DNA of 64,000 nt from Akkermansia muciniphila (GTDB lineage Bacteria; Verrucomicrobiota; Verrucomicrobiia; Limisphaerales; SIBE01). The stretch spans positions 585-64,584 of the forward strand of contig CAMAWP010000002.1 in the NCBI GenBank assembly GCA_945861765.1, in the 5' to 3' direction. The notes below the pieces were generated by a model. It searched no databases and was not told the origin of the DNA. It saw only the letters and a list, made by a program, of their open reading frames with translations. Positions 1,091 through 36,550 of the stretch are shown here, one piece after another. Within the stretch, counting starts at the first letter, position 1. Each line of letters opens with the position of its first letter. The position numbers and the translations under genes were made by a program.

Positions 1091-2425
1091 ATGTTAACGA
1101 TCTATGGTCAAAGGTCGCGTTTTTGCGACGGAATATCACGGAGAAATTTTCTTAAGATAGGTGCGCTCGGTTTGGGCGGATTCGCTCTTCCTCAACTGCT
1201 TGAGGCTGAGACGCACGCGGGCATTCGACGATCCCAAAAGGCAGTCATCATGATCTTTTTGCCTGGTGGGCCATCTCATCAGGACATGTTTGACCTCAAG
1301 ATGGACGCGCCTGCGGAGATTCGCGGGGAATTCAAGCCAATCAAGACGAACGTTTCTGGTATTGATATTTGTGAACATCTGCCTCTGATCGCGCGCAAGA
1401 TGGACAAGATGGCAATCATCCGCTCGATCGTTGGCGCTGATGGAGATCATGACGCTTTCCAATGCTTGACGGGCCGTTCGGTGCGTAACCAACCGCCGGG
1501 AGGATGGCCCGCAATGGGTTCGGTTTTGTCAAAGCTTCAAGGGCCAATCAATAAAGCGATTCCTCCGTTTGTTGGACTTTCCCCGAAGATGGGAGAAATG
1601 CGCTGGGCGGATGCGGGTAAGCCGGGCTTTCTCGGTGTTCCTCATGCGCCGTTCAGGCCTCAGGGCGCGGGGAAATCCGATTTGGTTTTGAATGGAGTGA
1701 CCCTTGACCGATTGTCGGATCGAAGAGCACTGCTCGCTAGCTTCGACCGTTTTCGCCGAGATGTGGATACCACGGGAATGATGGAGGGACTCGACGTATT
1801 TAACGAGCAAGCCTTGGGAATGCTCACTTCAAGCCAATTATTAGACGCTCTTGATATCGGGAAGGAAGATCCTAATGTCCGCGCCCGTTACGGGAAAGGT
1901 GACCCCAAGAATCGAGACGATGGCGGGCCGAAGTTAATGGAACATTTTCTGATCGCTCGTCGGCTGGTCGAAGCAGGCTCGCGATGCGTCACGCTGGCTT
2001 TCAGCCGATGGGATCATCACGGCGATAATTTTGGCGCCCTGCGACAAGACTTGCCGTTGCTCGATCAGGGTGTCTCGGCGCTCGTCGAAGATTTGCATCA
2101 ACGCGGTCTTGACAAGGACGTGTCTGTCATTGTCTGGGGTGAGTTCGGCCGCACCCCAACCATCAATAAAGATGGCGGGCGCGATCATTGGCCGCGGGTG
2201 TCCTGCGCGCTGCTCGCTGGGGGTGGAATGAAGATGGGGCAAGTCATCGGTGCCACTGACAGGCTCGGCGGAGAAGCCACCGAGCGGCCGGTGTACTTTG
2301 GAGAAGTCTTCGCGACCCTCTACAATAACCTTGGAATCGACACGAGCAAAACCACCGTCAAAGACTTGACTGGTCGGCCACAGTTCTTGGTGGACGGGCA
2401 CCAGCCGATTCGGGAGCTGATTTGA
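1091..2425 (+). CDS. DUF1501-family protein with Tat-type signal
   Basis: 444-aa ORF. Twin-arginine signal-like N-terminus [22 protein letters not shown]1501-type motifs [19 protein letters not shown] and WGEFGRTP...GGRDHWP. Confidence 0.9.
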
Positions 2426-21888: not shown

Positions 21889-24392
21889 TTTCGAAACACG
21901 AAATCTTTGGAATTCAAGAGGCCCCACAAAATGTCCTCCAGTTCCGCGCGTCGATCCTTGGATGCTTCGAGGTAAGCCGTGGTTTTGCTCCACTCTTCAT
22001 CGCCTGGAGCCGCTGTGAGAGCAGTCCGAAAAAGTTCATCGACGATCTCTCGGTTCGATTTTCCGGAAGCCAGCAGCCGAGCGAGCCGGTTATCCTTGTC
22101 GGCAACCAAATCATTGACAGCCGGGCCGCTGATCAGTTGGAAAGCCTGGCTCATGTTGCACTCGCAGGAACGCTCCGTTTCAGAAGTGAGCAGCCGGGGT
22201 GGTTTGCCGAAGATCTCAAGGAATTGATCCAACTGGTTGGATCGTCTTTGACCTTTGGCCTCGGGGCGCACTCCAGGTAGCTGGGCCGCCCTCAGACCTG
22301 GTGGATACGCGCCAAACTTCAGGGGAACACCGGTCACTTGGCTCTGGCAATCGAGCATTTGCTCGGCACCTAATCGTCTCACCAATACGTGTGAGAAATT
22401 TGATTCGTCGCTGCTGTTGGTTTCGTTCGGCTCCGATGATAACTGGTAAGCTCGCGAGTTCATGATCAGGCGAATCACGTAGCGAAGGTCAAATTGATGC
22501 TTCACGAAATCTTTTGCCAAAGCATCCAACAAGCCAGAATGAGAAGCCGGGTTAGTCGCTCGAAAATCGTCGATTGGCTCGACCATCCCGCGCCCCATCA
22601 GGTGGTACCAGATCCGGTTAGCCTGCGTGCGGGCGAACAGCGGGTTGTCCGGGCTCGTGAGCCACGTGGCTAATTGTTGCAACTCGTCTGGGTTGTTTTC
22701 GAGATTCGCATTTCGAGATTCGTTGTTGGATACGGACGTTGCCGCTCCGAGAAAACGGGGTTGAGCTGGCTTGCCGGTGCGCGGGTTTGGAACCGCGCCC
22801 TTGCGCGAGATGAAGACAATTTGCTCCCCTTTCCATTCATGTTGGTCGCTGCCGATATCGCGTTTGTTTTCCAGGACCTTGTAATCGACTCGCGCGAAAA
22901 CGCCTGCCCAATCGTAGTAATCGTCCTGCGTCCAGCGGTCGAATGGATGGTTGTGGCATTCGGCGCATTGCAAACGAACGCCGAGAAATACCTGGGCCGC
23001 TGCTTTGGCCCGCGTCGCCGGATCGCGGTTTGGACGATAAAAATTCGCCGCTGGATTAAGATAAGTGCTCCCACGAGCTGTGATCAAATCGCGAACAAAT
23101 TGGTCCATCGGTTTATTCTCAGCGATGTTCTTGCGAATCCAGTGATGGAAATTATGCACTCCCTTTTGATCCAACGAATGCGCTTCATTGCGCAGCAGAT
23201 CGGACCACTTCAATGCCCAGAAATCCGCAAACTCAGGTCGTGTTAGCAACTGTTCAATGAGCTGCGCCCGTTTCGCCAGCGTTTCGCTTTCTGTAGCCGC
23301 GGACGCAAGCTGGCTTTGATCAATTTCGGATTTGGACAGCACAGCCTCCTCACGCCGGCTGTTACCGGGAGACTCGCTCACAAATGCGCGGGCTTCGTCG
23401 GCTGTCGGCAAGATGCCCAAAAGATCAAGATACGCCCGCCGCAAGAACACTTCATCAGAACACAACGCAGAGGGGTTCATCCGAAGTATTCGAAGCTTTG
23501 AAAAAATGTGATCGTCAATGTAGTTGTGAGTCGGCGGGTTTGCCCATTTGAACCCGGGGCGAGCCGGGACAAACGCTATCCGCACCGGTTCCTGGCATTG
23601 CAGATACCGAACGAGCACCGTCGTCTCCCCCGGTCCTTCGCGTTGCGCGATTCCGTCCTGGCCAACCTTGGTCAACCCGTTGGATGTTTCGTAAACGGCC
23701 AACCCCGTCACGTCTCGACGCGTGCCGTCGGAAAAGATAGCCCCCACGCGTAGTTGGACCCGATCTTCCGGTTCGATCAGAACCTTGTCCGATGGCGTGA
23801 CTTCGATCCTCTCCAGCTTGGCGACGGAGGCGAAATCGTCCCGCAGTCCCTCGGCGATCCAGCGGCGGAGAATTTCATATTGCTCCGAGCCCTTCCGGAA
23901 GCGCAGGCCGCCCTCGTGAGCAATGTCAGTCGTCGGCTTCAACAGAAGCAAGCTCTGGTCAGCCTCGATAGGGTTCGTGCGGCGACCATACAAATCGCGT
24001 GTCACCGTGAGGAGGTCAATATCCGGATCTTGTCCGCGCAAGGAGAGTTTGAACCCGCCCTTTCCGTTCTTATTGCCGTGGCAAGTCCCGGCGTTGCATC
24101 CGGCTTTCGAGAACACCGCCATCACATCGTTCCGGAAGGAAACCTCACCTGCCCGCGCAGTGATCCATGGCAATAATTCCATGAAGCACAAGAGGAACAC
24201 CGACCAATTCAGGCGGTAGATTGGAAATAGCTGAAAACGATAGCCTGTTGGCACTTGGGAGAATCCTTTCTTCAAGTGGTCGCTTGGCCGGGTTCCGAGG
24301 ATTTGCTGAATACTCGATATGACAAGCATCGTTCCACTTCGAACACGTCGTTGAAAACGCGAAGCTCCAGCCAATTCTGTGCGAAGCGCCAT
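21885..24392 (-). CDS. DUF1549/DUF1553 (PSCyt/PSD-type) protein
   Basis: 835-aa ORF; the internal ATG at 24329 is an alternative start. Motifs: GCNAGTCHGNKNGKGGFKLSLRG, LRRAYLDLLGILPTADE, QCAECHNHPFDRW, RSCECN. It lacks the first Ig-like segment of the + strand copies. Confidence 0.88.
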   Translation of the reverse strand: MALRTELAGASRFQRRVRSGTMLVISSIQQILGTRPSDHLKKGFSQVPTGYRFQLFPIYRLNWSVFLLCFMELLPWITARAGEVSFRNDVMAVFSKAGCNAGTCHGNKNGKGGFKLSLRGQDPDIDLLTVTRDLYGRRTNPIEADQSLLLLKPTTDIAHEGGLRFRKGSEQYEILRRWIAEGLRDDFASVAKLERIEVTPSDKVLIEPEDRVQLRVGAIFSDGTRRDVTGLAVYETSNGLTKVGQDGIAQREGPGETTVLVRYLQCQEPVRIAFVPARPGFKWANPPTHNYIDDHIFSKLRILRMNPSALCSDEVFLRRAYLDLLGILPTADEARAFVSESPGNSRREEAVLSKSEIDQSQLASAATESETLAKRAQLIEQLLTRPEFADFWALKWSDLLRNEAHSLDQKGVHNFHHWIRKNIAENKPMDQFVRDLITARGSTYLNPAANFYRPNRDPATRAKAAAQVFLGVRLQCAECHNHPFDRWTQDDYYDWAGVFARVDYKVLENKRDIGSDQHEWKGEQIVFISRKGAVPNPRTGKPAQPRFLGAATSVSNNESRNANLENNPDELQQLATWLTSPDNPLFARTQANRIWYHLMGRGMVEPIDDFRATNPASHSGLLDALAKDFVKHQFDLRYVIRLIMNSRAYQLSSEPNETNSSDESNFSHVLVRRLGAEQMLDCQSQVTGVPLKFGAYPPGLRAAQLPGVRPEAKGQRRSNQLDQFLEIFGKPPRLLTSETERSCECNMSQAFQLISGPAVNDLVADKDNRLARLLASGKSNREIVDELFRTALTAAPGDEEWSKTTAYLEASKDRRAELEDILWGLLNSKDFVFRK

Positions 24393-24468: not shown

Positions 24469-27400
24469 TTAAGCTGCGCTTGCTCCGTTGCGTCGGAACG
24501 ATCGGGTCATTGCGCTGAACAAAGTCAGCACCAATAACGTCGCCGCCAAGATCAGCAGTCGTGTCCGCCACGACGCAGCTTGCGTGGCTGTGGCCTCAAT
24601 TCCGATCTTCAGATCAGCCCAAGGATCCACTGCAACGGCGCGCTTGAAGGTGAGGAGGTGACCTTGTTCTGGAATCGAAGCGCGAATGGCGGTGGGACTG
24701 CTCACGGCGGCGTCTTGCTGTTGAATGAGTCGTTCGGCCAAGCGCATGTAAGCGGCGTTCTCGTCGGCGGTATTCCTGTCGATTATCGCTTTGGCGTCTG
24801 GCTGTGTGTAGTTGAGATCCTTGCCGCTCCGCAGATCGCGGAAGTTGCCGCCCAGCACCGCGGAATCTCCAGCCGCGGTAGCCTGGCGCACGTTCAAGCC
24901 GACCAGTGCTTGCTGCAATTTAAGATTGTGCAGTTGCACTCGAGCATCTTCGTTGAACGCATTGTCATGCTGGCTCAGTCCGTAGGCGGCTTGGAAGGCG
25001 CGGCGGGCCTGTTGCTGCTCGCCCTGCTGCAACTTGGTGTTGCCGAGCGACAGCATTTGCTCGGCTTCCTCAGTTTTCTGTTTTTGCAGGCTGGTTTCGT
25101 TCCGTAGATAGGTCTCGACATCAACAACCGCTGAGCGCACTCCGGGTTGTTCCTCTTGCAGTTGGAGCGACCCCTTCCAATGCTTGAGGTGCCATTTCTC
25201 GTTGAGATAGACATGCCAGGTAATGTCTTCCAACGGCAGATCAAATTTCGGCGCGACAAGAGCCAAGTTGAGCGTGCGCGTGTTCGCCGCGCCAATCTTG
25301 CTGCTGTAAAAAATCTCCACGGGCATGGCCTGGCCCGCGCGCGAATGTTGTTCGAGTGGAATCAAAAAGTGTTCTTGCTCGCGCCATGGCCAAGCTCCGT
25401 TTTGGTTTACAAAGGCGAACCAGAAGCGCGCGTCGGCCGGAAGCGTGAGGTGGAGGAGACGCTTGTCGCCGGGCAGCATCTCGAGGCGCGCGTGCGTGAG
25501 CATCACGCCATCATCGGAAATCACTGAGGTGAGCGTAATGTTGTTCACGCGCGCGGGCAGGAGTTTGGCCGCGTCGTGGCGGTCAATCTTCAAGGGAAGT
25601 TGGAAGGCCGGTTCAACCAGCCGATACGCGAAGCTTGCCGAGGCCGCTGGCAAATCCTGCTGGAGCGCGCGCGGGATGCTTTGCCATTCGGTGGGTTGAA
25701 GGGCGGCTGGCGTCGAATCAACGCGCACTTGCAGACGTCCGCCCGACTGCACAGTGACAAAACCGCGCTGAAGGTTCACATCCGCAGCTTGCACCCCATT
25801 GAGGATAACCTCCGTGGCCTGCCCTGGAATCAGCGTCTGGTAAGTCACCTGCAACAGGTATCGGCCAATCACGCGCCGGTGCAATTTCACTTCCCACGCT
25901 TGCAAACCGTTGGTCACAACGCCTGCGATCGGCAGGAAATCGGAGATTTGCTCACCGTGGAATCGCGCGCTCTCGGCATTGGTCGGAATGAAGACGCGGA
26001 ATGCTTTGATGCCGGTGTTCTCGATCTGGTATTGGAGATTCGCGGTGATCTTCATCTGCGCTTCGTTGACGATCGCGTGCTGCAAGCTCGTCACTTGAAT
26101 CCAGGGCTCCACTTGCTCGATGTCAAGCGCGAGGGACCACGGAACTTGCAGAACGCGGAACGCCAGCACTCCTTTTTGCCGAATGCCCGATTTCTGAGGA
26201 TCCAGTTGCGTCACGCCGTCGCGTGTGGCGACCTGCAAACGCGTCCCTTGCTCCGGCACAATCACGAGCGTTCCCCGCTGCTTGCTGGCTTCGCGCAGGA
26301 GCAGTTGCGGCACGGCCCAAGCGTTGGTCGCCTTGGCACCTGGCCCGGCCAGGCTGATGGCGAACTGTTGTTTGCCCTCGGTCTTGCCGCGCAAATGCAA
26401 CGTGATGATGCGGCCCGCCTCGGTCCTCAACTCGGTCCAATGGCTTAGCGCTGGCCCACTGACAGATTCCACGTCCAGCCCGTTTGGCAACGCAAAGCTT
26501 AGTCGAAAAATGCCCGCGCGCGTGATGTCCACGGTCGCGTTCACCGCCAGCACCGTTCGGTCTTCACCGAGTGAAAGCGTGTCCTGGGTCTCGACGCGGA
26601 CATCGGCTTCGACAGCGGAGGCCTTCAATGATGCCACGGCTTTGATGTCTCCGTAACGAAAGGCGCGTCGCACGGTGAGCCCCGGGATCTGTGCTTGCAG
26701 GGTTGGCGCGATTCCGGCCGGGAAATCTTCGAGGTTAATTGACGAGAAGGCATCGGCGCTCACGGTATCGAGCTGCACCTCACTTCCCGTAGCCACGCCG
26801 AGAAGTCCGATTTGCGCCGCCGCATTTTCCACGGCTAACAGGCCAACGGATTGCTCGAAGGGCAGCGGTCCTGTCGCAATTTGTGATCGAATGAGCAGAG
26901 CAAACTGCCGCGATTGCGCCGGGTTGAAGCTCACGCGCAGCTTCCGAGTGTCTGGGTCGAAACGCCACAGCGACACGAGGGAAGACTTCGGAGCCAGAGG
27001 TTGAATTGTGACGGGATCGACTGCATTCACATCAGTGATGGTCGTACCGCTGGGCGCCTCGAACAGTAGCTCTTTCAGTTCGCCTTGAGCTGGCCGGATA
27101 GTCACGTAGTGCGTCCCTTCAATGACCCCCGCCGAGGGTGCGTAGAGCTGGAATGCCTCTGCATAAAAGACTGGCTTCTCGCGTTGAACGTCCCTGCTGC
27201 GCGGTCTCCATGCAATCCACGAATCAATCACAGGTGAGAGAGTCAGCTTTGCCACGCTGTTGCTGCCAACAGCGTCACGCTGGATTGAAACGGCCTGCGG
27301 CGAGAGCACGTCCACGTCAAGGTTCACGAGCGTTAGAATAAGCTGATTCACCAGCCCGTATTGTGTCGGAAGGACGAAACCACTCTCAGTGACACCTTTC

Positions 27401-30400
27401 GTGGTATGCACTTGGTACTGCATCTCGATGTCGAATGCGCCGCTCTCCACGGCGAGCAATTGCTGCGCGCGTTTCGAACCCGCTGGTGCCTGCACGAGCT
27501 TGAGCGCGTTGGTCGGGTGCGTGATGCGTGTCAGCACCGCTGGCTCGAACAGCAGCGGCAGCATCTCGCCCTTGAGCGCCTGCCAGCGGATTTTGGCCGT
27601 TCCGAACGCAAACTTTTCTTCGACCCGTATCTGCTGTGTGATGGATTCAGCCAGCGGCGGCTCTTTTGGGAATGGCGCAGGCTGGGGACGTCGCGCTTCA
27701 TCAGCTTGCGCTCCGGTGGCCTTTGTTGAACTGGCCGCATCATTCTCCTTTGAAGTCTCTGGTAAGGCAGCTTGAATATCTGCGCTCATTGCGATCGCTT
27801 GATTGGCCATTGGCAGCCACATCAGCCCGCCTAACACCAATGACGCCACCGACATTGCTGCGCCGCCTTCCGGCGCGGATGGCGAAGTGGGCTTCGGCTT
27901 TCTCGGCAATCGCGCGAGCTGGCGCAATGCGGGAATCAGGACGTGCAACAAAAGGAACGCTACGACAACAACAAGAAATCCCTTGGCTCCGTTCGGCCAA
28001 CGAAGCGCCGCCCAGGCAGCCAGCGTCCAGCCGATCACTCTGAACCAGTGCCTCTCCGTCAGCCACCCATACGCCCACATCGCGAGAGCAGCCAACGCAG
28101 GCCAGGCGAATCCGACAACGCTGACCACCGACATTTCGTCTTCGACGTTCAACATCTCCACATTTAACGCGCTGTCGGCTTGTTGCACCGGAGCAAGAAA
28201 CGTCACAGCGCGCGGCGCAATCTGGTATTGTTGTTGCGCCAGGTCCGCCAGGTTTGCCATCACTGCGATGGCCATCCCGAACGAGATCACGCCTAGCACA
28301 GTCCCCGAAATATAGCGGGCATCAAACTTGTAAACGCCCTCTTGACTCGTCCACCTCCACACCCGAATGGCTATTGCCAGCAACGCCATCACGGCAATCA
28401 GGCAGACCGTCACCGGCCCCGCCTCCTCACCGTGGAACATTCGCGCTAACTGCGTGAAGCCCGAAACGTCCGCCTCGCCGCCGACCGGTGTGAGCGACCC
28501 TTTTCTATAGATCAATCGCTGGCCCGTTTCCGGTTCTAGTTTCCATTCGGCGAGCATCACAGGGGCAGCCACAACGGGAGCGGCGACGGTCACGTGCTTC
28601 GGATTCTTTGATCGCGCGGCCAGTTTCAGATCGAGCATCAACACGGCGTTCGGGTCCGCCCGTTGCGGCAGCGGGATGAGGTTTGCGCTGCCATCTGTCA
28701 CCGGTACGACCGCGGCGCTGTTGATCGTCGCCGACCATAGCTCTGTTCCCGGAGGCAGCGTGAGCCGGAAGTGCGGGTTGCCACGGTTCTTGATGAAGTA
28801 GCGCACGTCCGTGAGCACTTGGCCTTCCTTCGAAATCCTCGTGGTCAGCGAGGCGCGATCCACCACTTGGCTGAGCGAATCACCTTGCGCGAGCCGACTC
28901 AAAGCGAGTCTTAGGTTGAACGGCCGCGACGTGTAACGGTAAGCCGCGAGGATTGGCGCGTCGAAAAACAGGCGGTACTCCGGCGGCACCTCGCCGGTTT
29001 CGAGCGGTAGCAGTCCGGCTGACACATCCACTGGCTTGACCTGAAACTGGTACGCGCTGATGACGAGCGTGTGCCCCTGCTCAGATTGCGCGTCGATCGG
29101 ACGCGCTCCAGTGAACACGAGAGTCTCGCCCTGCGTCTTGAATGGCCGTTCGTAGGTCGCGAGCAACGTGTAGGCGCCCGACACCGGCGTGTGCAACTGC
29201 ACCACGTAACCGTTCGTGGCCTTCTGCCAATTGCGAATGTCCTTGCCCGAGAATTCGACGTTGAAATATTCGTCGGACAATTCGAGTTTGAAGGCCGACA
29301 CCGGCGCTCCGGAAACAAGATAGTTTACCACGCTGCTTCCGTAGGCGATGCCTTCGCCGATCGAGAACAAATGGAATCCGTCCGCTTGGATGGACTGCGG
29401 CACACGTTCGACTCGCACTGTTGCTTCCCACGCCGGTTCACTCAGTCGGAAGGCCGATTGAATCCCCACGAGCTTGCGCGGGAAAAATGCGGTGGCGATC
29501 TCCGTCAATGCCTGGGTACGTTCCGGCGTCAGGCGAAAACCGGCGTCCGCCGAAACACCCACGTGACCGCGCACGGACTTCGCTTTGTCCACCTCGATCC
29601 GAGGCAAGACCCAGCTTGGGCCGCCGAGGGTGGCATTGCGCTCCAGACGAAGCTGGACGACCTGTCGGCCCGCCATTGGCTGACCGTAAACCAGCCGCAG
29701 CTCAGCGTCGGCCCTGTCCGCAGCTTCACGCAGGAAGTAGTCGCTGAGGCCGGACGCGTTGAGCTTCGCTACCGCGTAGCCCTTGGGAACGCGAAGAACA
29801 AGTTCTCGCAACGGGGCTTCGCGGATATCGAGCTCGATTTCCCCATCAATCGCCAGCTCGTTCTCGCCAAGATGATACGCGAGCACCTGCGACACGGTCA
29901 GCTCGGGAAGAATTTGATCCGCCTGAATCCTGAGTGCAACGTCAGCCCCGGAAAATCGGTAGGCAAACCGCTGTCCGCCAGCGACGCGGAAAAGCGCCTT
30001 GGTAATGTCGCTCTCGGGAAATTGTTCGGGAGAGATCTGCGAGAGTCCGCTCGCCAGCACGACTTCGAGTCGCACGGCTCCGTCATTCACGATTCGGAAA
30101 TAGCCGGCGAACCGTGTGGCGCCTTCGGGCCGCAGTTGCATCGCATTCGCTGTTTGCGGGAAAGCGCCCAGCGGCGTCTGCATCTGTGCCTGGAGCGCGA
30201 ATTGGTCCTTTTGCGGTTGATTAAAATGGACGATGAGACGGCGGTCGGTGGAGTTAGGAACCGGCTCGACATTCCAGGCCAACACCTGGTCTCCTTGCAC
30301 GCGGGTGACTTCACCGGCGCCGCTCAGCAGCAGCACGACGCGGTTCAGCTCGCCTTGCATGACTTTGAAATTCATCAAGGCCACCTGCCGCATGAGGCCA

Positions 30401-31665
30401 GGGCTTATGTTGATCTGGGACAGCATCTCCGCGGCGTAGAAAAGCTTGCCCTCCGCCTCGGGTCGGGCGGCTTTCCACGAGAGTTTGACTGTCCCGTCCG
30501 GCGGCAGAAAGCTCATGAATTCGTTGCCTGAGCGTTCGGGCCGCGCTGCTCCTGCGAACTGGAATTGGGTGTCTGGGGGCAGCGCCTCGAGAATGATCGG
30601 TTGCAGCGCGCTGGGAGCCACATGGAAATCGACGATGTTCCAGCCATCGTTCCGGTGAACTGCGGCGTTGAATTTGAGCTGGATTGGAAATTCGCCAGGC
30701 TGATCGAAGACGAGGATAAACCGGCCTTGGTCGAAACGCAGGCGCCAGTTGGGATTTGGTTGAAAATCGGTGAGCGCGATGTTTCCGGAAATCAGAAGAA
30801 CAGAGCCGCCTCTTGGATTCTTTACTCGCACGGTGGTGTTGAGGGTGAATCCAGCGATCTGGTCACTGAGCTGGCCGACGAGTTTAAAGTTGCGGAGGAC
30901 GACTCTCCGCGCCTCCGGATCGGCGATAGTGACTCGAAGTGGCAACGAGTAGGCCGAGCCGTGGAACCGAAACGGCATGGGCTCGGGTTCATCGGGCTTG
31001 GTCTCGCCACGCATCCGCTCTGGCAGAAAACCCGGTGCGATCGGGACGAGGCCGGAAGGATTGACGGGCTGCACGTCGAGTTCCGGAGACGCTTCGACCT
31101 TCACATAACCGTTGAAGAGGGCGGGCTGCGTCGGAGTGAGCGTGAGAGACGGAAGCGTGTTCAACAAAGCCTTAAGCTCCCGCTCTGCGGCGATCGTGAC
31201 GGTGAGCTGCGTGAGAGGTTTGTCGCCTTTGCGTGGGCGCAGAACCAGCGTGCGCAAGCCGTTCGTCTCCTGCCGAACGCTCCAGTCTTGCAGCGCATCG
31301 CCGCTGACCCGCAGGATCTCTCCGTCGCCGGAGATGATGAGCGGAAGTTCTTTCGGATCACCTTGGAGGATGTCGAGCGTGGCAATGATGGAGTGGGTGA
31401 CTTTGTCACGCGTGACTTTGATGGAGTGCTGGAGCGCGGTCGCGTAAATGAGTTTCTCCCTGTCTGTGGGAAGGCCGTTGAGCACGGCTTCGATGACTAA
31501 CCGCGCCTTGCCATCTTCGAGGCCGCCACTCACGGAAAGGTTCCTGAGCTCGGTCGTCGCGGCAACCGCAGGCAGCAGGGTGAGAAGTAACTGGATGGCT
31601 GAAAGCGCGCCAAGCAACGGACGTCGCGCAAATTCTTTAAGGTGTGCTGAGACAAGGTTCTTCAT
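24469..31665 (-). CDS. 2398-aa hypothetical membrane protein, internally duplicated, no family recognised
   Basis: Single uninterrupted ORF. Signal-like LLGALSAIQLLLTLLPAVAA. A cluster of about five hydrophobic helices is encoded at roughly 27790-28420, and there is a C-terminal TM (LLILAATLLVLTLFSAM). The two halves share ordered motif series (see findings). Confidence 0.8.
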   Translation of the reverse strand: MKNLVSAHLKEFARRPLLGALSAIQLLLTLLPAVAATTELRNLSVSGGLEDGKARLVIEAVLNGLPTDREKLIYATALQHSIKVTRDKVTHSIIATLDILQGDPKELPLIISGDGEILRVSGDALQDWSVRQETNGLRTLVLRPRKGDKPLTQLTVTIAAERELKALLNTLPSLTLTPTQPALFNGYVKVEASPELDVQPVNPSGLVPIAPGFLPERMRGETKPDEPEPMPFRFHGSAYSLPLRVTIADPEARRVVLRNFKLVGQLSDQIAGFTLNTTVRVKNPRGGSVLLISGNIALTDFQPNPNWRLRFDQGRFILVFDQPGEFPIQLKFNAAVHRNDGWNIVDFHVAPSALQPIILEALPPDTQFQFAGAARPERSGNEFMSFLPPDGTVKLSWKAARPEAEGKLFYAAEMLSQINISPGLMRQVALMNFKVMQGELNRVVLLLSGAGEVTRVQGDQVLAWNVEPVPNSTDRRLIVHFNQPQKDQFALQAQMQTPLGAFPQTANAMQLRPEGATRFAGYFRIVNDGAVRLEVVLASGLSQISPEQFPESDITKALFRVAGGQRFAYRFSGADVALRIQADQILPELTVSQVLAYHLGENELAIDGEIELDIREAPLRELVLRVPKGYAVAKLNASGLSDYFLREAADRADAELRLVYGQPMAGRQVVQLRLERNATLGGPSWVLPRIEVDKAKSVRGHVGVSADAGFRLTPERTQALTEIATAFFPRKLVGIQSAFRLSEPAWEATVRVERVPQSIQADGFHLFSIGEGIAYGSSVVNYLVSGAPVSAFKLELSDEYFNVEFSGKDIRNWQKATNGYVVQLHTPVSGAYTLLATYERPFKTQGETLVFTGARPIDAQSEQGHTLVISAYQFQVKPVDVSAGLLPLETGEVPPEYRLFFDAPILAAYRYTSRPFNLRLALSRLAQGDSLSQVVDRASLTTRISKEGQVLTDVRYFIKNRGNPHFRLTLPPGTELWSATINSAAVVPVTDGSANLIPLPQRADPNAVLMLDLKLAARSKNPKHVTVAAPVVAAPVMLAEWKLEPETGQRLIYRKGSLTPVGGEADVSGFTQLARMFHGEEAGPVTVCLIAVMALLAIAIRVWRWTSQEGVYKFDARYISGTVLGVISFGMAIAVMANLADLAQQQYQIAPRAVTFLAPVQQADSALNVEMLNVEDEMSVVSVVGFAWPALAALAMWAYGWLTERHWFRVIGWTLAAWAALRWPNGAKGFLVVVVAFLLLHVLIPALRQLARLPRKPKPTSPSAPEGGAAMSVASLVLGGLMWLPMANQAIAMSADIQAALPETSKENDAASSTKATGAQADEARRPQPAPFPKEPPLAESITQQIRVEEKFAFGTAKIRWQALKGEMLPLLFEPAVLTRITHPTNALKLVQAPAGSKRAQQLLAVESGAFDIEMQYQVHTTKGVTESGFVLPTQYGLVNQLILTLVNLDVDVLSPQAVSIQRDAVGSNSVAKLTLSPVIDSWIAWRPRSRDVQREKPVFYAEAFQLYAPSAGVIEGTHYVTIRPAQGELKELLFEAPSGTTITDVNAVDPVTIQPLAPKSSLVSLWRFDPDTRKLRVSFNPAQSRQFALLIRSQIATGPLPFEQSVGLLAVENAAAQIGLLGVATGSEVQLDTVSADAFSSINLEDFPAGIAPTLQAQIPGLTVRRAFRYGDIKAVASLKASAVEADVRVETQDTLSLGEDRTVLAVNATVDITRAGIFRLSFALPNGLDVESVSGPALSHWTELRTEAGRIITLHLRGKTEGKQQFAISLAGPGAKATNAWAVPQLLLREASKQRGTLVIVPEQGTRLQVATRDGVTQLDPQKSGIRQKGVLAFRVLQVPWSLALDIEQVEPWIQVTSLQHAIVNEAQMKITANLQYQIENTGIKAFRVFIPTNAESARFHGEQISDFLPIAGVVTNGLQAWEVKLHRRVIGRYLLQVTYQTLIPGQATEVILNGVQAADVNLQRGFVTVQSGGRLQVRVDSTPAALQPTEWQSIPRALQQDLPAASASFAYRLVEPAFQLPLKIDRHDAAKLLPARVNNITLTSVISDDGVMLTHARLEMLPGDKRLLHLTLPADARFWFAFVNQNGAWPWREQEHFLIPLEQHSRAGQAMPVEIFYSSKIGAANTRTLNLALVAPKFDLPLEDITWHVYLNEKWHLKHWKGSLQLQEEQPGVRSAVVDVETYLRNETSLQKQKTEEAEQMLSLGNTKLQQGEQQQARRAFQAAYGLSQHDNAFNEDARVQLHNLKLQQALVGLNVRQATAAGDSAVLGGNFRDLRSGKDLNYTQPDAKAIIDRNTADENAAYMRLAERLIQQQDAAVSSPTAIRASIPEQGHLLTFKRAVAVDPWADLKIGIEATATQAASWRTRLLILAATLLVLTLFSAMTRSFRRNGASAA

Positions 31666-31737
31666 TTTTGTTGAATCGATTGAGTTGTGCGTAAAAGTCT
31701 GTGATGGCTCTCCTGTATTCTCGCTCTCTGGTTAGTC

Positions 31738-34700
31738 CTATCTTCCCGCGATGCTCTTGGCTTGCCGGATCATCCATTCGAGCTTTTTGGGGCGGGCGTC
31801 GGCGCCGTAAACGTCCGGCACGCCGCTGAGATAGGCGAGCAACCGATCCGGCGTGACTTCGCCCGCATAAGGACTCGACACGAGCCATTCTGAGAACGCG
31901 CTCGCGGTCGCGGCCAAGCGCATGGCAGAGCTGGCTTGCTCCAACGGAAGGGCATCCCCGGCGAAAGGCACGGCCCATTCGTGCTCGCGGTATTCGGCGG
32001 TGCCAGGAAGTTTGTAACGGACCCGGACGATGGCGATCGGGCCTTCGCCGCGCGGATTCACTTCCACGACGTAAAGCGCGTTGCCGGACTCAGCCGCGCC
32101 GATCTCGGCGGCATCGACGGTGTTGTCGCGGAACTGCTCCTTGGTGAGTTGGTGCTTCGCGTAGCCGACCTGGCGATACGCGGCGACGCGCCTGGGATTG
32201 AACTCGACCTGCACCTTCACATCCGAGGCCGCGACGCGCAGCGCGCCGGCGAGTTGGCCGGCAAACTCAGTCGATGCTTCTTCCGGAGTGTTCACGAAGC
32301 CGTAACGGCCATCGCCATTGCGTGAGAGCACTTCGAGTAAATCGTCGTTAAGGCCTTCCCAGCCGATCCCAAAGCAGTCGAGCGCGATACCTTGTTTGCG
32401 GTGCTCTTCCACTTTCTGTTTGAGTGCATCAGGACTCACGTTGCCGAGGTTGGCTGCACCATCGGTGAGGAGCACGACGCGATTGACGCCGCCGTTAACG
32501 TAATGCCTGAGCGCAGTCTGATAACCCGCGTTCATGGCTTCTTCGAGATTCGTGCCGCCCTGTGGAGTGAGGTTGCCAAGCTGCTCTGAGATCTGGCCGG
32601 CTTGGTTGCCGACTATGCCATCCACCCAGAGTCGCGCGGTGCGTGCGAAAGCAATCACACTCAGCTTGTCTTGCGGTTGCAATTGAGCGGCCAGCACGCG
32701 CAACGCTTCGCGAACGATCCGCACACGGTCGGCACGCTCCATCGAGCCGGAGTTGTCCAGCAGCAGCACGAGATTCAGCGGACGGTTCGGTTGGCGGCCT
32801 TGCGCGGCGGTCTTAACTGAGAAACGGAGCATGTCGCGGTTATGGGCGAACGGGTATCGCGCACGCTCCCAGGCGAACGCCACCGGCATGCCGGAGGGCG
32901 GCTCGGAATCGCGGTAATCGAAGGCATTAATGAATTCCTCGCTTCGCACCGCGGCAGGCTCGGGCATAATGCCGTGTTCGAGACTCGCAGCCGCCAGCTT
33001 GAACGAAACATCGGAAACATTGAGTGAGAAAGTGGAGAGCGCACTGTCGCGTGTTTGCACCTCTGGCTGAGGAACTGGAGCCACCGAAGCGGGCTTGGAT
33101 GGAGTGAGGTCGGAAAGTTTGATCTGGGATTCTTCCTGAAAGAGCTCCGGACGTGTTGGAGCACGGGTAATTTTCTTTTCCGTTTCCATCAGGCCCGCCT
33201 TCTCCGCGTTGGACGCTGCTTCCTTCCCGCTGGCATCTTTCCAGGTTCCAGAGAGACGCCGGGTTGCTGGTTCGACGTGGAGGGTTCCTTCCTCTCCAGC
33301 GCTCGAACTAACTGCCGGAAGGGCGATGGACAGCGCTACCGGTGGTCGCTTGGCTTCTTGGCCTGGGACAACGGCAACCTTCTGAGATATTGAATCATCG
33401 AGTGTGTTGAGTCTCGCAAGGGCAAACTCGTCGTTGAGAGATTTATCGGTCTCGCCTAGTCCTTCCGTCTTGAACTTGGATAACTTCTGGTTCGCTTCGT
33501 CCGACGGACCAGCAGCGCCTCGCGTGAGCCCATAACGTTCCATCAACTTCGGGTCCATTTTGAAGGCGGGCATTTCCTGGGGAGGCGGTGTTGTCGGAGC
33601 CGGCGTTTCGATGAAGCGCGAGGCTGCGTTTTGAGTTGGAGCTAGTGGTGGAGGTTGAGCCGGTAAGGGCAGGTCAAGCCTATCTCTGACGCTCGATTGC
33701 GCTTGAGGTTCCAAGGCCTTGTAGTCGGCGTGCGTGTCTTGTGGTTGTTGCTCTCCAAGTCCACGCGCCAACCGACGTTCGAGTCCCAGGAGGCGATTCT
33801 CGAACAGAAGCTCCACGTTTTGCGGTGTCTGTCGTAGAAGCTCATCTCTGTCATTGGCCGCCACGGTTCCTCTTCCGAAGGCGACATTGCCGCTCTTCGA
33901 GAGTGTCTCGGCTCCAGACGTGCGCTTCAGGTCCGAGCTTAGTTCTGTCATTCCCGGCCGGGGCAATGTCAGCCCGTAGGCGACATCATCAACACGGTTC
34001 ACGACCTCCGATTCTGAGGTGGCCGTTGCCGTTTGAATGTACGTTGTTCCGTTGACAGCGAAAGCCGCGATGCTGCCGCGGTCACCAGCGATAGATTCCT
34101 CAACATTAAGGACCTTCTTTTTGCCGAGTTCTGCGCTACCGCTCAATGGGAGGACGGCAACGCTGGTAGGGCCTTTCTGACCGGCTGCCGGCAGGACAAG
34201 ACCCTTGCGGTTTGCACCGTTTCCACCCAAGAGAATGTTCGCGTCAGGCGCTAGTGTCGTTTGTGGTGGTGCGCTGACAGCGACCGCAGCCAGAGAATCT
34301 GTTGGGGCAGTTGGAATGGGGCGATCAAGGGCAGACGGGCTATTCGAAAGGAAGGATGATGCGCCATTTTGTTTGTCTGATTCAGGCAACCTTTCACCCT
34401 CTCCTCTGGCAATCTCACGAGCTGGCAGCGCGAAAAGTGTTCCTGTTTTGATGGCCGGATAACTGAAATTCACCAAAGGCTTTTCACCACCAAAACCCTC
34501 CGTGCGCTTCGAAGGATCGCCTTTTTGGAAAGCGAATCCGGCGCCCCCGCCGAGACCCACGCCAGGCTCGCGTATGGACGGTTCCTTAACCTCCTTCTTA
34601 GAAACGCGGACCCGTGCAACGTCTCTCCGATCTTGGGAAGCGGTTCCGTCGTCATTCGTCAATTGCTCGTCGGTTATTTCGACGTCGGAAACTGTCGCCT

Positions 34701-35154
34701 TAGCCATCTCGCGTTCAGAATTTCGCGAAGCCATGGGTGCCTTGAAGCGATGAAACTGATTGGAGAAACCTGGGAGCAGCGCCACCGAACCGATCAAGGC
34801 AACCAGAGCCGCAGCGAGGCTCAAGGGGATATACCAAGCCTTCTGGCGATGGTCTGGACGATTAAACTCTTTTGGGGTTACCGTCTTGAAATGTTGGACG
34901 AGATTCTTGCGGCGCGCGTCAGACAGCCTGAGCGTGGAGTGTTGCGCGGTGGTTTGCGCCGTCGGGTCGGTTGCAGCTTCGGCCACGAGGTCAATGGTTC
35001 GCTTGAGGCGCTCGTACAGCGTGGCTAGCTCGACATTCTGTTCCATAGCCTGCCGGATGGCGGCTGCTTCTTCAGCGGACAATTCGCCGAGCAGCAGCGC
35101 GGTTAAGCGGACTTCCATTTGCTCGTGAGCGCTTTGGGGAGAGTCTGGGTTCAT
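31738..35154 (-). CDS. anti-sigma-factor-like N-terminus fused to a periplasmic von Willebrand factor A (YfbK-like) domain
   Basis: 1138-aa ORF. The N-terminus LTALLLGELSAEEAAAIRQAMEQNVELATLYERL is typical of ECF anti-sigma factors. One TM (YIPLSLAAALVALIGSVALL). A long low-complexity linker follows. VWA MIDAS motif LVLLLDNSGSM...LTDGAANLG. It lies directly downstream of an ECF sigma gene. Confidence 0.8.
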   Translation of the reverse strand: MNPDSPQSAHEQMEVRLTALLLGELSAEEAAAIRQAMEQNVELATLYERLKRTIDLVAEAATDPTAQTTAQHSTLRLSDARRKNLVQHFKTVTPKEFNRPDHRQKAWYIPLSLAAALVALIGSVALLPGFSNQFHRFKAPMASRNSEREMAKATVSDVEITDEQLTNDDGTASQDRRDVARVRVSKKEVKEPSIREPGVGLGGGAGFAFQKGDPSKRTEGFGGEKPLVNFSYPAIKTGTLFALPAREIARGEGERLPESDKQNGASSFLSNSPSALDRPIPTAPTDSLAAVAVSAPPQTTLAPDANILLGGNGANRKGLVLPAAGQKGPTSVAVLPLSGSAELGKKKVLNVEESIAGDRGSIAAFAVNGTTYIQTATATSESEVVNRVDDVAYGLTLPRPGMTELSSDLKRTSGAETLSKSGNVAFGRGTVAANDRDELLRQTPQNVELLFENRLLGLERRLARGLGEQQPQDTHADYKALEPQAQSSVRDRLDLPLPAQPPPLAPTQNAASRFIETPAPTTPPPQEMPAFKMDPKLMERYGLTRGAAGPSDEANQKLSKFKTEGLGETDKSLNDEFALARLNTLDDSISQKVAVVPGQEAKRPPVALSIALPAVSSSAGEEGTLHVEPATRRLSGTWKDASGKEAASNAEKAGLMETEKKITRAPTRPELFQEESQIKLSDLTPSKPASVAPVPQPEVQTRDSALSTFSLNVSDVSFKLAAASLEHGIMPEPAAVRSEEFINAFDYRDSEPPSGMPVAFAWERARYPFAHNRDMLRFSVKTAAQGRQPNRPLNLVLLLDNSGSMERADRVRIVREALRVLAAQLQPQDKLSVIAFARTARLWVDGIVGNQAGQISEQLGNLTPQGGTNLEEAMNAGYQTALRHYVNGGVNRVVLLTDGAANLGNVSPDALKQKVEEHRKQGIALDCFGIGWEGLNDDLLEVLSRNGDGRYGFVNTPEEASTEFAGQLAGALRVAASDVKVQVEFNPRRVAAYRQVGYAKHQLTKEQFRDNTVDAAEIGAAESGNALYVVEVNPRGEGPIAIVRVRYKLPGTAEYREHEWAVPFAGDALPLEQASSAMRLAATASAFSEWLVSSPYAGEVTPDRLLAYLSGVPDVYGADARPKKLEWMIRQAKSIAGR

Positions 35155-35222: not shown

Positions 35223-35780
35223 TCATGGCACAACTCCGGTTCTCGCGAGTTCAGCGGCGATTGCTTTCAGCGCGTGGTGGAGAAGGTAACCCACGTGGCT
35301 GACTGTCAAACCGGTGCGGGCTCCGATTTCTTTGTAGGACAGATCCTCGTTGAATTTGAGGCGAACCAGCTCGCGACCGCGATCATCGAGGGTTTCCAGG
35401 CTGAGCTGGACTAGCTCAATGCCCTCCCATCGGGCAACCTGTTCATCGGGCAGAGGTTGGGGATCGGTGGACTCGGGGTCAGCCAGCGAGCCGTCTTCGG
35501 TGTTTGAAATGAGTGGCACGATTTTTCCGGCGCGGCGTCGATGGTTCAGTGCGAGGTTATGCACGGTTCGGTAGAGCCAGCGTCGGGGCTCGCGGACTTT
35601 CTCAAACTGCGCGTGGAGTCTCATGAATGCTTCTTGAACCACGTCCTCGGCGACGTCGAGTTCATTGAACAGGCGCACGGCGTAGTTCAGGAGAGGCGAT
35701 TCCAGAGCTGCAAAGAGCTCTTCGATCGTTTCCCATCTCGGCGGTTCCACGATGACTTCGTTTGGTTGGGCCACGGTCAT
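35223..35780 (-). CDS. RNA polymerase ECF-type sigma-70 factor
   Basis: 185-aa ORF. Region-2-like DVVQEAFMRLHAQFEKVREPRRWLYRTVHNLALNHRRR. Region-4 HTH DLSYKEIGARTGLTVSHVGYLLHHALK. Confidence 0.9.
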   Translation of the reverse strand: MTVAQPNEVIVEPPRWETIEELFAALESPLLNYAVRLFNELDVAEDVVQEAFMRLHAQFEKVREPRRWLYRTVHNLALNHRRRAGKIVPLISNTEDGSLADPESTDPQPLPDEQVARWEGIELVQLSLETLDDRGRELVRLKFNEDLSYKEIGARTGLTVSHVGYLLHHALKAIAAELARTGVVP

Positions 35781-35830: not shown

Positions 35831-35884
35831 GCGACCCCGGCTATTGCTGCTCTCACTGATTAAGACACTTGAGATCCATACTTC

Positions 35885-36550
35885 TTAGACGATTTTTTTA
35901 CTTTGATACTCGAAGCCAGCGGCCGCGGGTCGGCCACGAGGAAGCTTGCCCACGTGATACTGGATGAATCCCGCCAGAAATTTTCCGATTTCGCCATCTT
36001 GGCTTTGGCTGGGCTTGATGCGCTGGATGGCGGTCCAGTTTGCGCTGGTGATTCGTTCAAGGATCTCGGCTGAGCCAGGGCTGAGCTGGGCCTTGCGGAA
36101 ATCCGGTTTCAAACCGAGCTGATGCAGGAGCTTTGTTTCAAAGGCATACACTGTGAGAGCTTGCGGCGATGCTTCAGTCAGGCTTTTGAGCGCGCTGAGA
36201 AACAGCTCGAAGAGCCCAGGCACAGGCGAGTCCGACTCGGTGGTCTGCTCGACTAGTTGCGTGAAATAGGAGGCCTGCTGGAGATAGCCAAGTTCCCGTC
36301 TGAGACCGGAATGAAAGTCGAGCACGCTTACTTCGTGCAGGTTATGCAATTCACTTCGGCGGCTTCGATGGAAGGAAAAATCACACAGATAGAAGAGATC
36401 AAGCTTGCCTCGGAAGGGCGATTTAGGACGGAGCGCGCCCTTCGCCACCGTGGCGATTCTGCCCAAGTCCGGCGTCACCCAATGCACGATTAAACTAGTC
36501 TCGGTCAGGGCGCGTGTGCGAAGGATCAGCCCAGGCGTGCGTTGGTCCAT
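35885..36550 (-). CDS. recO: DNA repair protein RecO
   Basis: 221-aa ORF. The N-terminal OB-fold-like GLILRTRALTETSLIVHWVTPDLGRIATVAKGALRPKSPFRGKLDLF is typical of RecO. It sits in the usual ybeY/recO neighbourhood. Confidence 0.85.
   Translation of the reverse strand: MDQRTPGLILRTRALTETSLIVHWVTPDLGRIATVAKGALRPKSPFRGKLDLFYLCDFSFHRSRRSELHNLHEVSVLDFHSGLRRELGYLQQASYFTQLVEQTTESDSPVPGLFELFLSALKSLTEASPQALTVYAFETKLLHQLGLKPDFRKAQLSPGSAEILERITSANWTAIQRIKPSQSQDGEIGKFLAGFIQYHVGKLPRGRPAAAGFEYQSKKIV

Follow-up and report, generated by a model that had tools for sequence, protein, structure and literature searches.

A two-module giant membrane protein of Verrucomicrobiota and related phyla, encoded behind an ECF sigma factor and a putative vWA anti-sigma factor

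Bacteria of the PVC group (Verrucomicrobia, Planctomycetes, and relatives) have unusual and poorly understood cell envelopes, and to our knowledge very few of their envelope proteins have been characterized. The DNA analyzed here, a stretch of 64,000 nt (64 kb; hereafter, the window), carries on its reverse strand a giant open reading frame (ORF) that a first-pass annotation had read as a tandem duplication of a large module, with each copy followed by transmembrane (TM) segments. We asked whether the gene and its duplication are real, how the encoded protein is arranged in the membrane, and what it might do.

Integrity and internal duplication of the giant gene

The giant ORF is a single frame of 2,398 codons with an ATG start and no internal stop. 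The frame is intact over 24469-31665; a split by frameshifts on resequencing was one of the two circumstances that the first-pass annotation had named as refuting its reading. More than 700 full-length orthologues of the protein are known at 63-75% identity. The family as a whole comprises 2,895 cluster representatives and occurs in at least 570 GTDB species genomes of Verrucomicrobiota, Kiritimatiellia, Lentisphaerae, and Planctomycetota, with two modules in almost every case; the peptide at aa 2236-2253 served as the family-wide pattern in the genome scan. Split versions of the gene at other loci (L085, P0203) would fit a giant ORF produced by mis-assembly, by fusion of two genes, or by decay of a pseudogene, but the intact frame, the full-length orthologues, and the presence of the two-module form across four phylum-level lineages refute such an artifact, to which we assign a negligible chance. 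The gene is real, and its product represents a family of membrane proteins, so far undescribed, that occurs in Verrucomicrobia and related phyla and has no Pfam, NCBIfam, or PDB counterpart. Its features, all on the reverse strand, are as follows.

24469..31665, reverse strand: giant ORF, 2,398 aa plus stop codon (intact reading frame; full-length orthologues)
31561..31665, reverse strand: signal peptide, aa 1-35 (predicted from sequence; hydropathy peak at aa 17-35)
30841..31560, reverse strand: N-terminal accessory extension, aa 36-275 (local HMM cross-matches)
28492..30840, reverse strand: module copy 1, aa 276-1058, modeled as an all-beta chain of large beta-sandwich domains (profile-profile repeat, AlphaFold2, Foldseek)
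27796..28422, reverse strand: central six-helix TM bundle, aa 1082-1290 (AlphaFold2 helices; K/R and D/E counts)
25165..27600, reverse strand: module copy 2, aa 1356-2167 (BLASTP, profile-profile repeat, AlphaFold2, Foldseek)
24571..25164, reverse strand: helical C-terminal tail, probably periplasmic, aa 2168-2365 (AlphaFold2; weak TPR matches)
24907..24960, reverse strand: peptide with the highest conservation in the protein, aa 2236-2253, AFNEDARVQLHNLKLQQA (best-scoring window when 20 diverse homologues were compared)
24472..24570, reverse strand: C-terminal TM anchor (aa 2367-2387) and Arg-rich cytoplasmic tail (hydropathy, charge counts, AlphaFold2)

When aa 1-1250 were compared by BLASTP with aa 1251-2398, aa 396-1058 aligned to aa 1482-2167 (24% identity over 701 columns, E = 1.8e-37), and the Smith-Waterman score of the repeat was 416, compared to 44.6 +/- 5.8 in 100 shuffles (z ~64). 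Profile-profile comparison of the two halves, with profiles made from 60 homologues, matched aa 276-1058 to aa 1356-2167 (probability 99.7%, E = 4e-27, 767 columns). The duplication that had been read by eye is thus a significant internal repeat by each of these methods, and all seven motif pairs quoted for it lie at a constant offset of 1090-1105 residues, matched within 0-2 residues in the BLAST alignment. The size given for the module, ~1000 aa, did not hold: by profile-profile comparison, the duplicated unit is ~780-810 aa. In the extension that precedes module 1, the sub-domain at aa 401-583 is partly copied once more, as shown by local HMMs that cross-match the two (E = 2e-18 and 2e-16); the extension is missing from orthologues of 2,174-2,187 aa and is the least conserved periplasmic part of the protein. 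The window contains no further paralogue of the module.

The duplication is ancient, being common to Verrucomicrobiota, Kiritimatiellia, Lentisphaerae, and Planctomycetota. Single-module homologues, which the first-pass annotation had proposed to look for, do exist, as a separate family of ~1,200 aa in Planctomycetota (for example, the unannotated Anatilimnocola aggregata ETAA8_67280) that matches module 2 with E = 4e-32 by local HMM and 1.5e-14 by BLASTP. These proteins resemble the giant protein in having the same type of module followed by TM helices, but they have one module and three TM helices, lack the TPR-like tail, and are not encoded next to a sigma or anti-sigma gene. They were traced only through a planctomycete neighbor gene: at one locus (L087), the single-module gene lies directly upstream of the two-module homologue, and planctomycete loci pair the giant gene with this single-module paralogue and with a 1,320-aa helical protein. 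The short entries among the top 150 representative matches proved instead to be a contig-end fragment (P0157) or split genes (P0262, P0203). The family shows cleanly how a membrane protein can evolve when a module is duplicated, fused, and in some lineages split again.

Membrane topology and predicted fold

The giant protein is an inner-membrane protein in which a cleavable signal peptide is followed by the beta extension, module 1, a six-helix bundle, module 2, a TPR-like tail, and a TM anchor. Hydropathy, repeat mapping, and AlphaFold2 agree in this with the outline drawn earlier of signal peptide, module, TM bundle, module, and TM anchor. The predicted signal peptide has a K/R-rich n-region, a hydrophobic core, and an AVA|A cleavage-like site. 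The hydrophobic helices after the first copy were correctly placed (27796-28422, compared to the original 27790-28420), but AlphaFold2 gives six rather than five, of which TM4 is weakly hydrophobic. The single terminal TM noted after the second module corresponds to the hydrophobic segment at aa 2367-2387.

The first-pass annotation had left open whether the two large domains lie on the same or on opposite sides of the membrane. Six helices and the distribution of K/R residues favor the same side, the periplasmic one, over opposite sides. The number of helices in the bundle is even, and among 60 homologues the K/R-rich loops (TM1/2, TM5/6, and the C-terminal tail) alternate with an acidic TM2/3 loop, which includes a conserved periplasmic beta-hairpin at aa ~1154-1175. 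Two natural variants also argue for a periplasmic location of both modules: a LysM domain is inserted in the N module of one homologue (P0126), and in the rare split genes the break falls exactly in the cytoplasmic TM5/TM6 loop, so that TM6 stays as a signal anchor for the C-terminal half. Based on the AlphaFold2 helices and the charge counts, both modules and the tail are therefore probably periplasmic.

Internal duplication combined with large periplasmic domains beside TM helices recalls RND-type proteins, and some distant homologues carry a Secretin_N or a DUF1559 (pseudopilin-type) domain, as might a transport or secretion machine (compare RND/SecDF and MacB-type systems) whose bundle would serve as the channel or energy-coupling core and whose periplasmic arms would be the conduit. 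RND/SecDF proteins, however, consist of two halves of 6 TM helices, in each of which a large loop separates the first helix from the second, and have conserved charged intramembrane residues, whereas the giant protein has 6+1 TM helices after a cleavable signal peptide, with no pseudo-symmetry. Its bundle is the least conserved region of the protein among 20 diverse homologues, has no invariant residue in the 20-member alignment, and yields an HMM that misses distant members. There is also no conserved ATPase or outer-membrane partner encoded nearby, and no transporter was among the Foldseek matches of either module. We reject the transporter reading as improbable on the grounds of the 6+1 arrangement, the poorly conserved bundle, and the lack of a transporter fold match.

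AlphaFold2 modeled both modules as chains of large beta-sandwich domains (pLDDT of 77 for module 1 and 81 for module 2), with pTM values of 0.39-0.41 that make the inter-domain geometry unreliable. For both modules, the best Foldseek matches were, in the same ranking, Ost1/ribophorin I (RPN1), the integrin alpha legs, and PIG-T (E = 1e-9 to 1e-5, probability 1.0), with TM-scores of only 0.1-0.29 and 7-11% identity. The values for ribophorin I/Ost1 were E = 1.5e-9 to 1e-6 and TM-scores of 0.21-0.29 on the target and 0.12-0.14 on the query, and the giant protein has no match to Pfam Ribophorin_I. The models thus indicate a shared domain type rather than a likeness at the family level; like both modules as modeled, Ost1/ribophorin I, PIG-T, and the integrin alpha legs are membrane-anchored, non-catalytic, extracytoplasmic beta-sandwich scaffolds.

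Neither the giant protein nor the 20 diverse members gave a meaningful match in Pfam or NCBIfam, and searches of PDB sequences with the protein and with the family profile gave no significant match. The earlier remark that the ORF has no catalytic motif agrees with these searches and with Foldseek, which found non-catalytic beta-sandwich scaffolds only. The DUF4139/DUF4140 families (PF13598/PF13600) and BatD (PF13584) had no match at E <= 1 in the giant protein; the MuiA-like DUF4140 and DUF4139 occur in one homologue (P0323), fused at its C-terminus as an add-on and not as the repeat module. We infer that the protein has neither enzymatic nor transport activity, because the sequence and fold searches revealed no enzyme or transporter core, and because the residues invariant in the family are mostly G, W, P, F, and L while the TM bundle is the least conserved part.

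The Chthoniobacter flavus orthologue is named "Alpha-2-macroglobulin domain protein" in UniRef, and an inner-membrane-anchored chain of beta-sandwich domains, with A2ML1 among the Foldseek matches of the N-module model, would suit a protease trap of the alpha-2-macroglobulin type that lacks the thioester. This identity is largely refuted, and we consider it very improbable: there is no A2M-family Pfam match in the giant protein or the 20 diverse members, the CxEQ thioester motif is absent, the only Cys (aa 1088) lies inside TM1, and A2ML1 ranked 21-22 with a probability of 0.30-0.41 and a TM-score of ~0.1 or less, far under Ost1/RPN1.

The stretch after the second copy had been described as Gln-rich and helical, and it is both (11.6% Gln, compared to 6.3% overall; helical in AlphaFold2). 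The model is TPR-like at the beginning of the tail and ends in a beta-hairpin, and weak TPR matches were obtained with Pfam TPR_2 in 4 of 20 members and with a PDB consensus TPR (E ~0.06-0.1). The most conserved peptide, at aa 2236-2253, is an acidic motif (NEDAR) within this tail. In the Pfam scans, the TPR_2 match was weak and a CBM_35 match fell under the cut-off.

Organization and conservation of the operon

The giant gene is the third gene of a conserved operon, in which it follows genes for an ECF sigma factor and a vWA/YfbK_C anti-sigma factor. The upstream features are as follows.

35864..35889, reverse strand: ECF-type promoter-like dyad TCTAAGAA-N13-GTGTC (~80-110 nt upstream of the sigma gene)
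35223..35780, reverse strand: ECF sigma factor, 185 aa, first operon gene (Pfam Sigma70_r2 and r4_2; NCBIfam TIGR02937)
31738..35154, reverse strand: putative anti-sigma factor, 1,138 aa, second operon gene (Pfam; weak NCBIfam match)

The sigma factor matches NCBIfam TIGR02937 (sigma70-ECF) with E = 6e-23. The putative anti-sigma factor consists of an N-terminal anti-sigma helix, one TM segment (~aa 107-128), a long low-complexity periplasmic linker, and, over ~aa 690-1138, a vWF_A/VWA domain followed by YfbK_C (DUF3520), with Pfam matches to YfbK_C (E = 5e-30), VWA, and vWF_A and a weak NCBIfam "antisigma" match at aa 17-141. A zf-HC2 domain is present in its orthologues from Kiritimatiellae, Lentisphaerae, and distant Verrucomicrobia, and all 60 homologues compared, without exception, have the MIDAS residues DxSGS...T...D.

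The dyad occurs once in the window, and 34 of 50 related loci have it ahead of their sigma gene. Across 1.59 Mb of loci, 35 copies were present, 34 of them upstream of sigma and one just upstream of the giant gene (L071). Scans of the operon for sigma-70 promoters and terminators did no better than shuffles. Wherever tblastn found a sigma gene in Verrucomicrobiota (52 loci), that gene is syntenic with the giant gene and the triad is complete; Kiritimatiellae, Lentisphaerae, and a distantly related lineage of Verrucomicrobia have kept the triad as well, at ~25% identity. A further lineage has the giant gene beside an ECF sigma gene together with MoxR, DUF58, and transglutaminase genes, another vWA-type system. 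The giant-protein family is nearly always encoded beside a stress-type ECF sigma factor and its anti-sigma factor, although the triad is not universal, since both regulatory genes are absent from one locus (P0231). The genes that lie downstream, DUF1549/DUF1553 and DUF1501, recur in 4/83 and 3/83 loci, respectively, too few for conserved partners, and the window contains no tRNA or Rfam features.

ECF289 systems have a +1 anti-sigma factor in which DUF3520 (YfbK_C) is fused to a vWF domain (Casas-Pastor 2021, PMC7826278), and the main text of that paper does not mention a giant +2 gene. The same pair of domains is found in our +1 anti-sigma factor, a likeness that concerns the anti-sigma domains, the sigma factor here being placed in the generic sigma70-ECF family alone. 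In the literature that we searched, there was no functional study of DUF3520, of vWA anti-sigma factors, or of DUF4139/4140.

Possible coupling of the giant protein to the anti-sigma factor

The function of the giant protein can only be inferred. Our tentative preference, held with considerable reserve, is that it is a non-enzymatic periplasmic scaffold and the partner or ligand of the vWA anti-sigma factor. This two-armed scaffold would be bound by the tethered vWA domain, whose MIDAS is intact, with the invariant acidic NEDAR motif of the tail as the candidate binding site; the state or amount of the scaffold (its assembly, envelope perturbation, or ligand occupancy) would set the release of the sigma factor, which would in turn drive the operon. 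Several observations point to such coupling: the retention of the triad in Verrucomicrobiota and down to ~25% identity, the invariant MIDAS, the conserved ECF-type promoter with its second copy before the giant gene in L071, the other lineage with its MoxR-DUF58-transglutaminase neighborhood, and the location of the most conserved peptide, an acidic motif, in the periplasmic tail. The absence of the triad at P0231, the different partners at planctomycete loci (the single-module paralogue and the 1,320-aa protein), and the fact that no protein came to light in which the giant protein is fused to the anti-sigma factor count against it.

Synteny is equally compatible with the giant protein as a mere regulated output, made as the chief product, structural or protective, of the sigma regulon (possibly a periplasmic shield, spacer, adhesin, or peptidoglycan-associated scaffold), with the anti-sigma factor sensing some other ligand and never touching it. 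Co-transcription behind an autoregulated ECF-type promoter, with the extra copy in L071, fits this explanation, as do the size and cost of an all-beta protein that in some lineages has acquired LysM, Laminin_G_3, or DUF4139 domains, and the homologues that have no sigma and anti-sigma genes beside them. On the other hand, the order of the triad is retained to ~25% identity over three phylum-level lineages, beyond most regulator-target pairs, and the neighboring genes offer the vWA domain no alternative candidate ligand or sensor. We regard pure output as possible but doubtful.

The logic proposed for the scaffold as partner would resemble that of three-gene cell-surface-signaling modules or the RseB/RseA pair. 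As in FecI-FecR-FecA and RpoE-RseA-RseB, one autoregulated operon encodes an ECF sigma factor together with an anti-sigma factor that crosses the membrane once and has its sensing domain in the periplasm, and the third product, likewise conserved, is an envelope protein. The third component here, however, is a 2,400-aa inner-membrane beta-sandwich protein and neither a TonB-dependent outer-membrane transducer like FecA nor a small periplasmic co-anti-sigma factor like RseB; Pfam detected no TonB-dependent receptor or Plug domain in this protein, which instead has helical TM segments. If the coupling is direct, the giant protein would be the first candidate ligand for the widespread vWA-YfbK_C anti-sigma class and a tractable way into envelope homeostasis in the PVC clade. 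A large unannotated family, conserved across the superphylum, is tied to a dedicated pair of ECF sigma and vWA anti-sigma factors.

The proposed contact between the MIDAS and an acidic ligand would resemble an integrin interaction. A bolder and rather unlikely extension is that the anti-sigma factor and the two-armed protein form an undescribed envelope-monitoring device core to the PVC superphylum, in which the long-tethered MIDAS would read the conformation or assembly of the ~2,400-aa scaffold through the invariant acidic motif and pass it on to ECF sigma activity; such a device would amount to an integrin-like mechanosensor in bacteria, working through MIDAS and ligand. In Planctomycetes, a related scaffold might be made of one single-module and one double-module subunit.

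Duplicated architecture of the giant protein

The minus-strand ORF at 24469-31665 is intact and runs from an ATG start through 2,398 codons in an uninterrupted frame; a reading of the gene as an artefact is disfavoured. When the N half of the protein was compared with the C half by BLASTP, aa 396-1058 aligned with aa 1482-2167 at 24% identity over 701 columns (E 1.8e-37), and the Smith-Waterman score of the halves was 416 vs. 44.6 +/- 5.8 in shuffled sequence. With profiles from 60 orthologues, hhalign widened the repeat to aa 276-1058 vs. aa 1356-2167 (probability 99.7%, E 4e-27). The repeat is genuine and lies far beyond chance, and the motif pairs by which a first-pass annotation had recognized a tandem duplication are all in register in the alignment. 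The repeat unit is about 800 aa, rather than the ~1000 aa estimated there. An extra copy of the sub-domain at aa 401-583 occupies aa 36-275 (local HMM cross-hits E 2e-18 and 2e-16, E-values from a tiny database); this extension is absent in orthologues of 2,174-2,187 aa, which start at approximately the equivalent of aa 255.

Two AlphaFold2 models, each from a 76-sequence alignment, covered aa 276-1300 (pLDDT 77) and aa 1300-2398 (pLDDT 81), with a pTM of about 0.4 and unreliable geometry between domains. Both modules were predicted to be all-beta chains of large sandwich domains, accompanied by the following features.

Predicted helical features of the giant protein
aa 1082-1106, 1116-1145, 1180-1203, 1206-1222, 1227-1251 and 1271-1290 (minus strand): six-helix central bundle
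aa 2183-2330 (minus strand): helical, Gln-enriched TPR-like tail after module 2, followed by a beta-hairpin
aa 2367-2387 (minus strand): TM7, after the tail beta-hairpin

The Gln-rich stretch and terminal TM helix expected after the second copy were thus recovered, with six central helices where five had been counted. Whether the modules lie on the same or opposite sides of the membrane had been left open. Both modules and the tail are probably periplasmic, and therefore on the same side, because the protein has a cleavable signal peptide and the bundle an even number of helices. This placement is also supported by a LysM insert in the N module of the homologous protein P0126, after the equivalent of window aa 313, and by gene splits at the cytoplasmic TM5/TM6 loop. 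Natural split genes break exactly at this loop, leaving TM6 to act as signal anchor for the C half; P0203, another homologue, has a stop codon after TM5. In charge counts across 60 homologues, K/R residues were enriched in three places (around the TM1/2 loop, within the TM5/6 loop and in the tail at the C-terminus), and the TM2/3 loop, which holds a conserved beta-hairpin, was net acidic. After three corrections, to the length of the repeat unit, the number of helices and the placement of both modules on the same side, the initial observation and its interpretation hold.

Conservation within the protein is lowest in the TM bundle (0.30 vs. 0.46-0.49 in the modules and tail), whose HMM misses distant relatives; this argues against a channel or transport core, and a transporter reading is disfavoured. 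The most conserved 15-mer in the whole protein, NEDARVQLHNLKLQQ (aa 2238-2252), lies in the putatively periplasmic tail, and most family-invariant residues are G, W, P, F or L. The sole cysteine in 2,398 residues is aa 1088, inside TM1.

No significant sequence match to Pfam, NCBIfam or PDB was obtained with the giant protein, 20 diverse relatives or the family profile. The giant protein contains no CxEQ motif, and an alpha-2-macroglobulin-like trap is also disfavoured. Foldseek produced the same ranking for both modules, with Ost1/ribophorin I first (E 1.5e-9 to 1e-6), followed by integrin alpha legs, PIG-T, mu-homology domains and the LTA4H/APN N-domain, at TM-scores of merely 0.1-0.29. In these models, the structural likeness is one of domain type, that of non-catalytic extracytoplasmic beta-sandwich scaffolds, and not of family. 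The giant protein belongs to no described family; the kind of protein, a membrane-anchored beta-sandwich scaffold tied to an ECF sigma/anti-sigma module, is familiar.

Family distribution and single-module relatives

More than 700 full-length orthologues share 63-75% identity, and 2,895 representatives of 50%-identity clusters matched at E <= 1e-3, 593 of them at E <= 1e-30. Relatives occur in at least 570 GTDB species genomes. Among the 80 loci listed, nearly all are labelled Verrucomicrobiota and the few other labels look mis-binned; MAG labels outside PVC likely reflect mis-binning or mislabelling. Such records, all with a 60-68%-identical gene and the operon, are L006, L030, L032, L038 and L076 (Bifidobacteriaceae), L009 and L071 (Acidoferrum/Acidiferrales), L040 (Limnocylindrales) and L045 (Methylomirabilota).

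Querying with a 24%-identical member reached proteins of 2,100-2,800 aa in Kiritimatiellia, Lentisphaerae and Planctomycetota. Throughout the family, proteins keep both modules, the central cluster of TM helices and the TM segment at the C-terminus. Because this layout persists everywhere, the duplication is older than these lineages. Lineage-specific additions comprise LysM, Laminin_G_3, C-terminal DUF4140 + DUF4139 (P0323 aa 2192-2710), a mid-protein, pseudopilin-associated DUF1559 (P0341 aa 1021-1183) and Secretin_N (P0351). Some members carry the JGI label 'pseudopilin PulG'.

Single-module homologues, whose existence the first-pass annotation had raised as a question, form a Planctomycetota family; its members, of about 1,150-1,250 aa, number at least 802 and include some from complete Anatilimnocola genomes. 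At a planctomycete locus (L087:2095-18238), genes for a 1,320-aa helical protein, for which Pfam gave no match, a 1,233-aa single-module protein and a 2,745-aa two-module protein lie in a row, with start and stop overlapping at the two-module gene. The 1,233-aa protein, encoded immediately upstream of the 2,745-aa gene, consists of a signal peptide, a module and three TM helices (module HMM E-values are from a tiny database). At P0347, another planctomycete locus, an unannotated gene of 1,388 aa overlaps the start of the giant gene.

At L085:4509-14794, the giant gene is split into N-half (1,273 aa) and C-half (1,133 aa) genes, parted by a 3-kb insertion encoding an HTH regulator, a DNA methylase and an HpaII-type restriction enzyme. 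Upstream of the split gene lie those for a RecQ helicase and for a protein of 739 aa, the latter without a BLASTP match to the sigma or anti-sigma factor of the window.

A conserved sigma/anti-sigma operon and its proposed role

Gene order on the minus strand of the window, with the promoter-like element
RecO
35864-35889 (minus strand): ECF-type promoter-like dyad, TCTAAGAA-N13-GTGTC, overlapping the RecO end, upstream of the sigma gene
35223-35780 (minus strand): ECF sigma gene
31738-35154 (minus strand): 1,138-aa gene
24469-31665 (minus strand): giant gene
20470-24392 (minus strand): PSCyt2/PSD1 (DUF1549/DUF1553) and DUF1501 genes

In the 1,138-aa protein, an anti-sigma-like N-terminus is followed by a single TM helix, a linker of low complexity (~570 aa) and vWF_A/VWA + YfbK_C domains. 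The order sigma, anti-sigma, giant was found in 52/52 Verrucomicrobiota loci with a tblastn-found sigma gene, and the triad recurs, with identity of about 25%, in Kiritimatiellae (L088), Lentisphaerae (L091) and a distant Verrucomicrobia lineage (L092), where the anti-sigma factors also score zf-HC2. Genes downstream of the giant gene are not conserved across loci. PSCyt2/PSD1 and DUF1501 are a typical PVC gene pair; they lie outside the conserved unit, since synteny is kept only in the closest relative, L052.

The conserved dyad, of the form cgTCTAAGAA-N13/14-GTGTC (GAAGAA-N14-16-CGTCT at distant loci), occurs once in the window; in 34/50 loci it precedes the sigma gene by about 110 nt. Across the 1.59 Mb of loci there is a single additional copy (L071:7744-7769), directly upstream of the giant gene, making L071 the sole two-copy locus of 92. 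A GGAGCAAA box is conserved in many loci about 20 nt further upstream of the dyad.

The MIDAS residues DxSGS...T...D are invariant in 60/60 anti-sigma homologues. The domain pair of this anti-sigma factor, DUF3520 (YfbK_C) + vWF, matches the architecture that PMC7826278 describes for group ECF289. The giant protein combines its anciently duplicated architecture and non-enzymatic beta-scaffold character with a conserved operon, which encodes an ECF sigma factor together with a vWA anti-sigma factor that is MIDAS-competent. From genomic context alone, we tentatively propose that it is a two-armed periplasmic scaffold and serves the tethered vWA domain as its cognate partner or ligand, that its assembly or conformational state may gate release of the sigma factor, and that the released sigma factor would autoregulate the operon. 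The invariant acidic NEDAR motif is, speculatively, a candidate MIDAS ligand. The main alternative, that the giant protein is only a regulated output and the vWA domain senses something else, seems to us only somewhat less likely. Our analysis defines a PVC-wide unannotated envelope family and puts forward a specific candidate for the partner of vWA-YfbK_C anti-sigma factors.

Other arrangements also occur. At L090:9261-21488, the neighbours of the giant gene are a Planctomycete-type ECF sigma gene, transcribed divergently, and the gene for a 443-aa protein, with MoxR AAA+, DUF58 and a transglutaminase-like protein downstream (a Bat-like set, another vWA-type system); the P0231 locus has none of these sigma, anti-sigma or Bat-like neighbours. 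Extra ORFs lie between the anti-sigma and giant genes at L003:9508-9996 (162 aa), L034:6190-7662 (490 aa, signal-peptide-like N-terminus) and L057:6228-7295 (137 and 198 aa, signal-peptide-like N-termini). In the window, G+C is 0.59-0.61 over the giant and anti-sigma genes (26001-34000) vs. 0.53-0.56 in the flanks.
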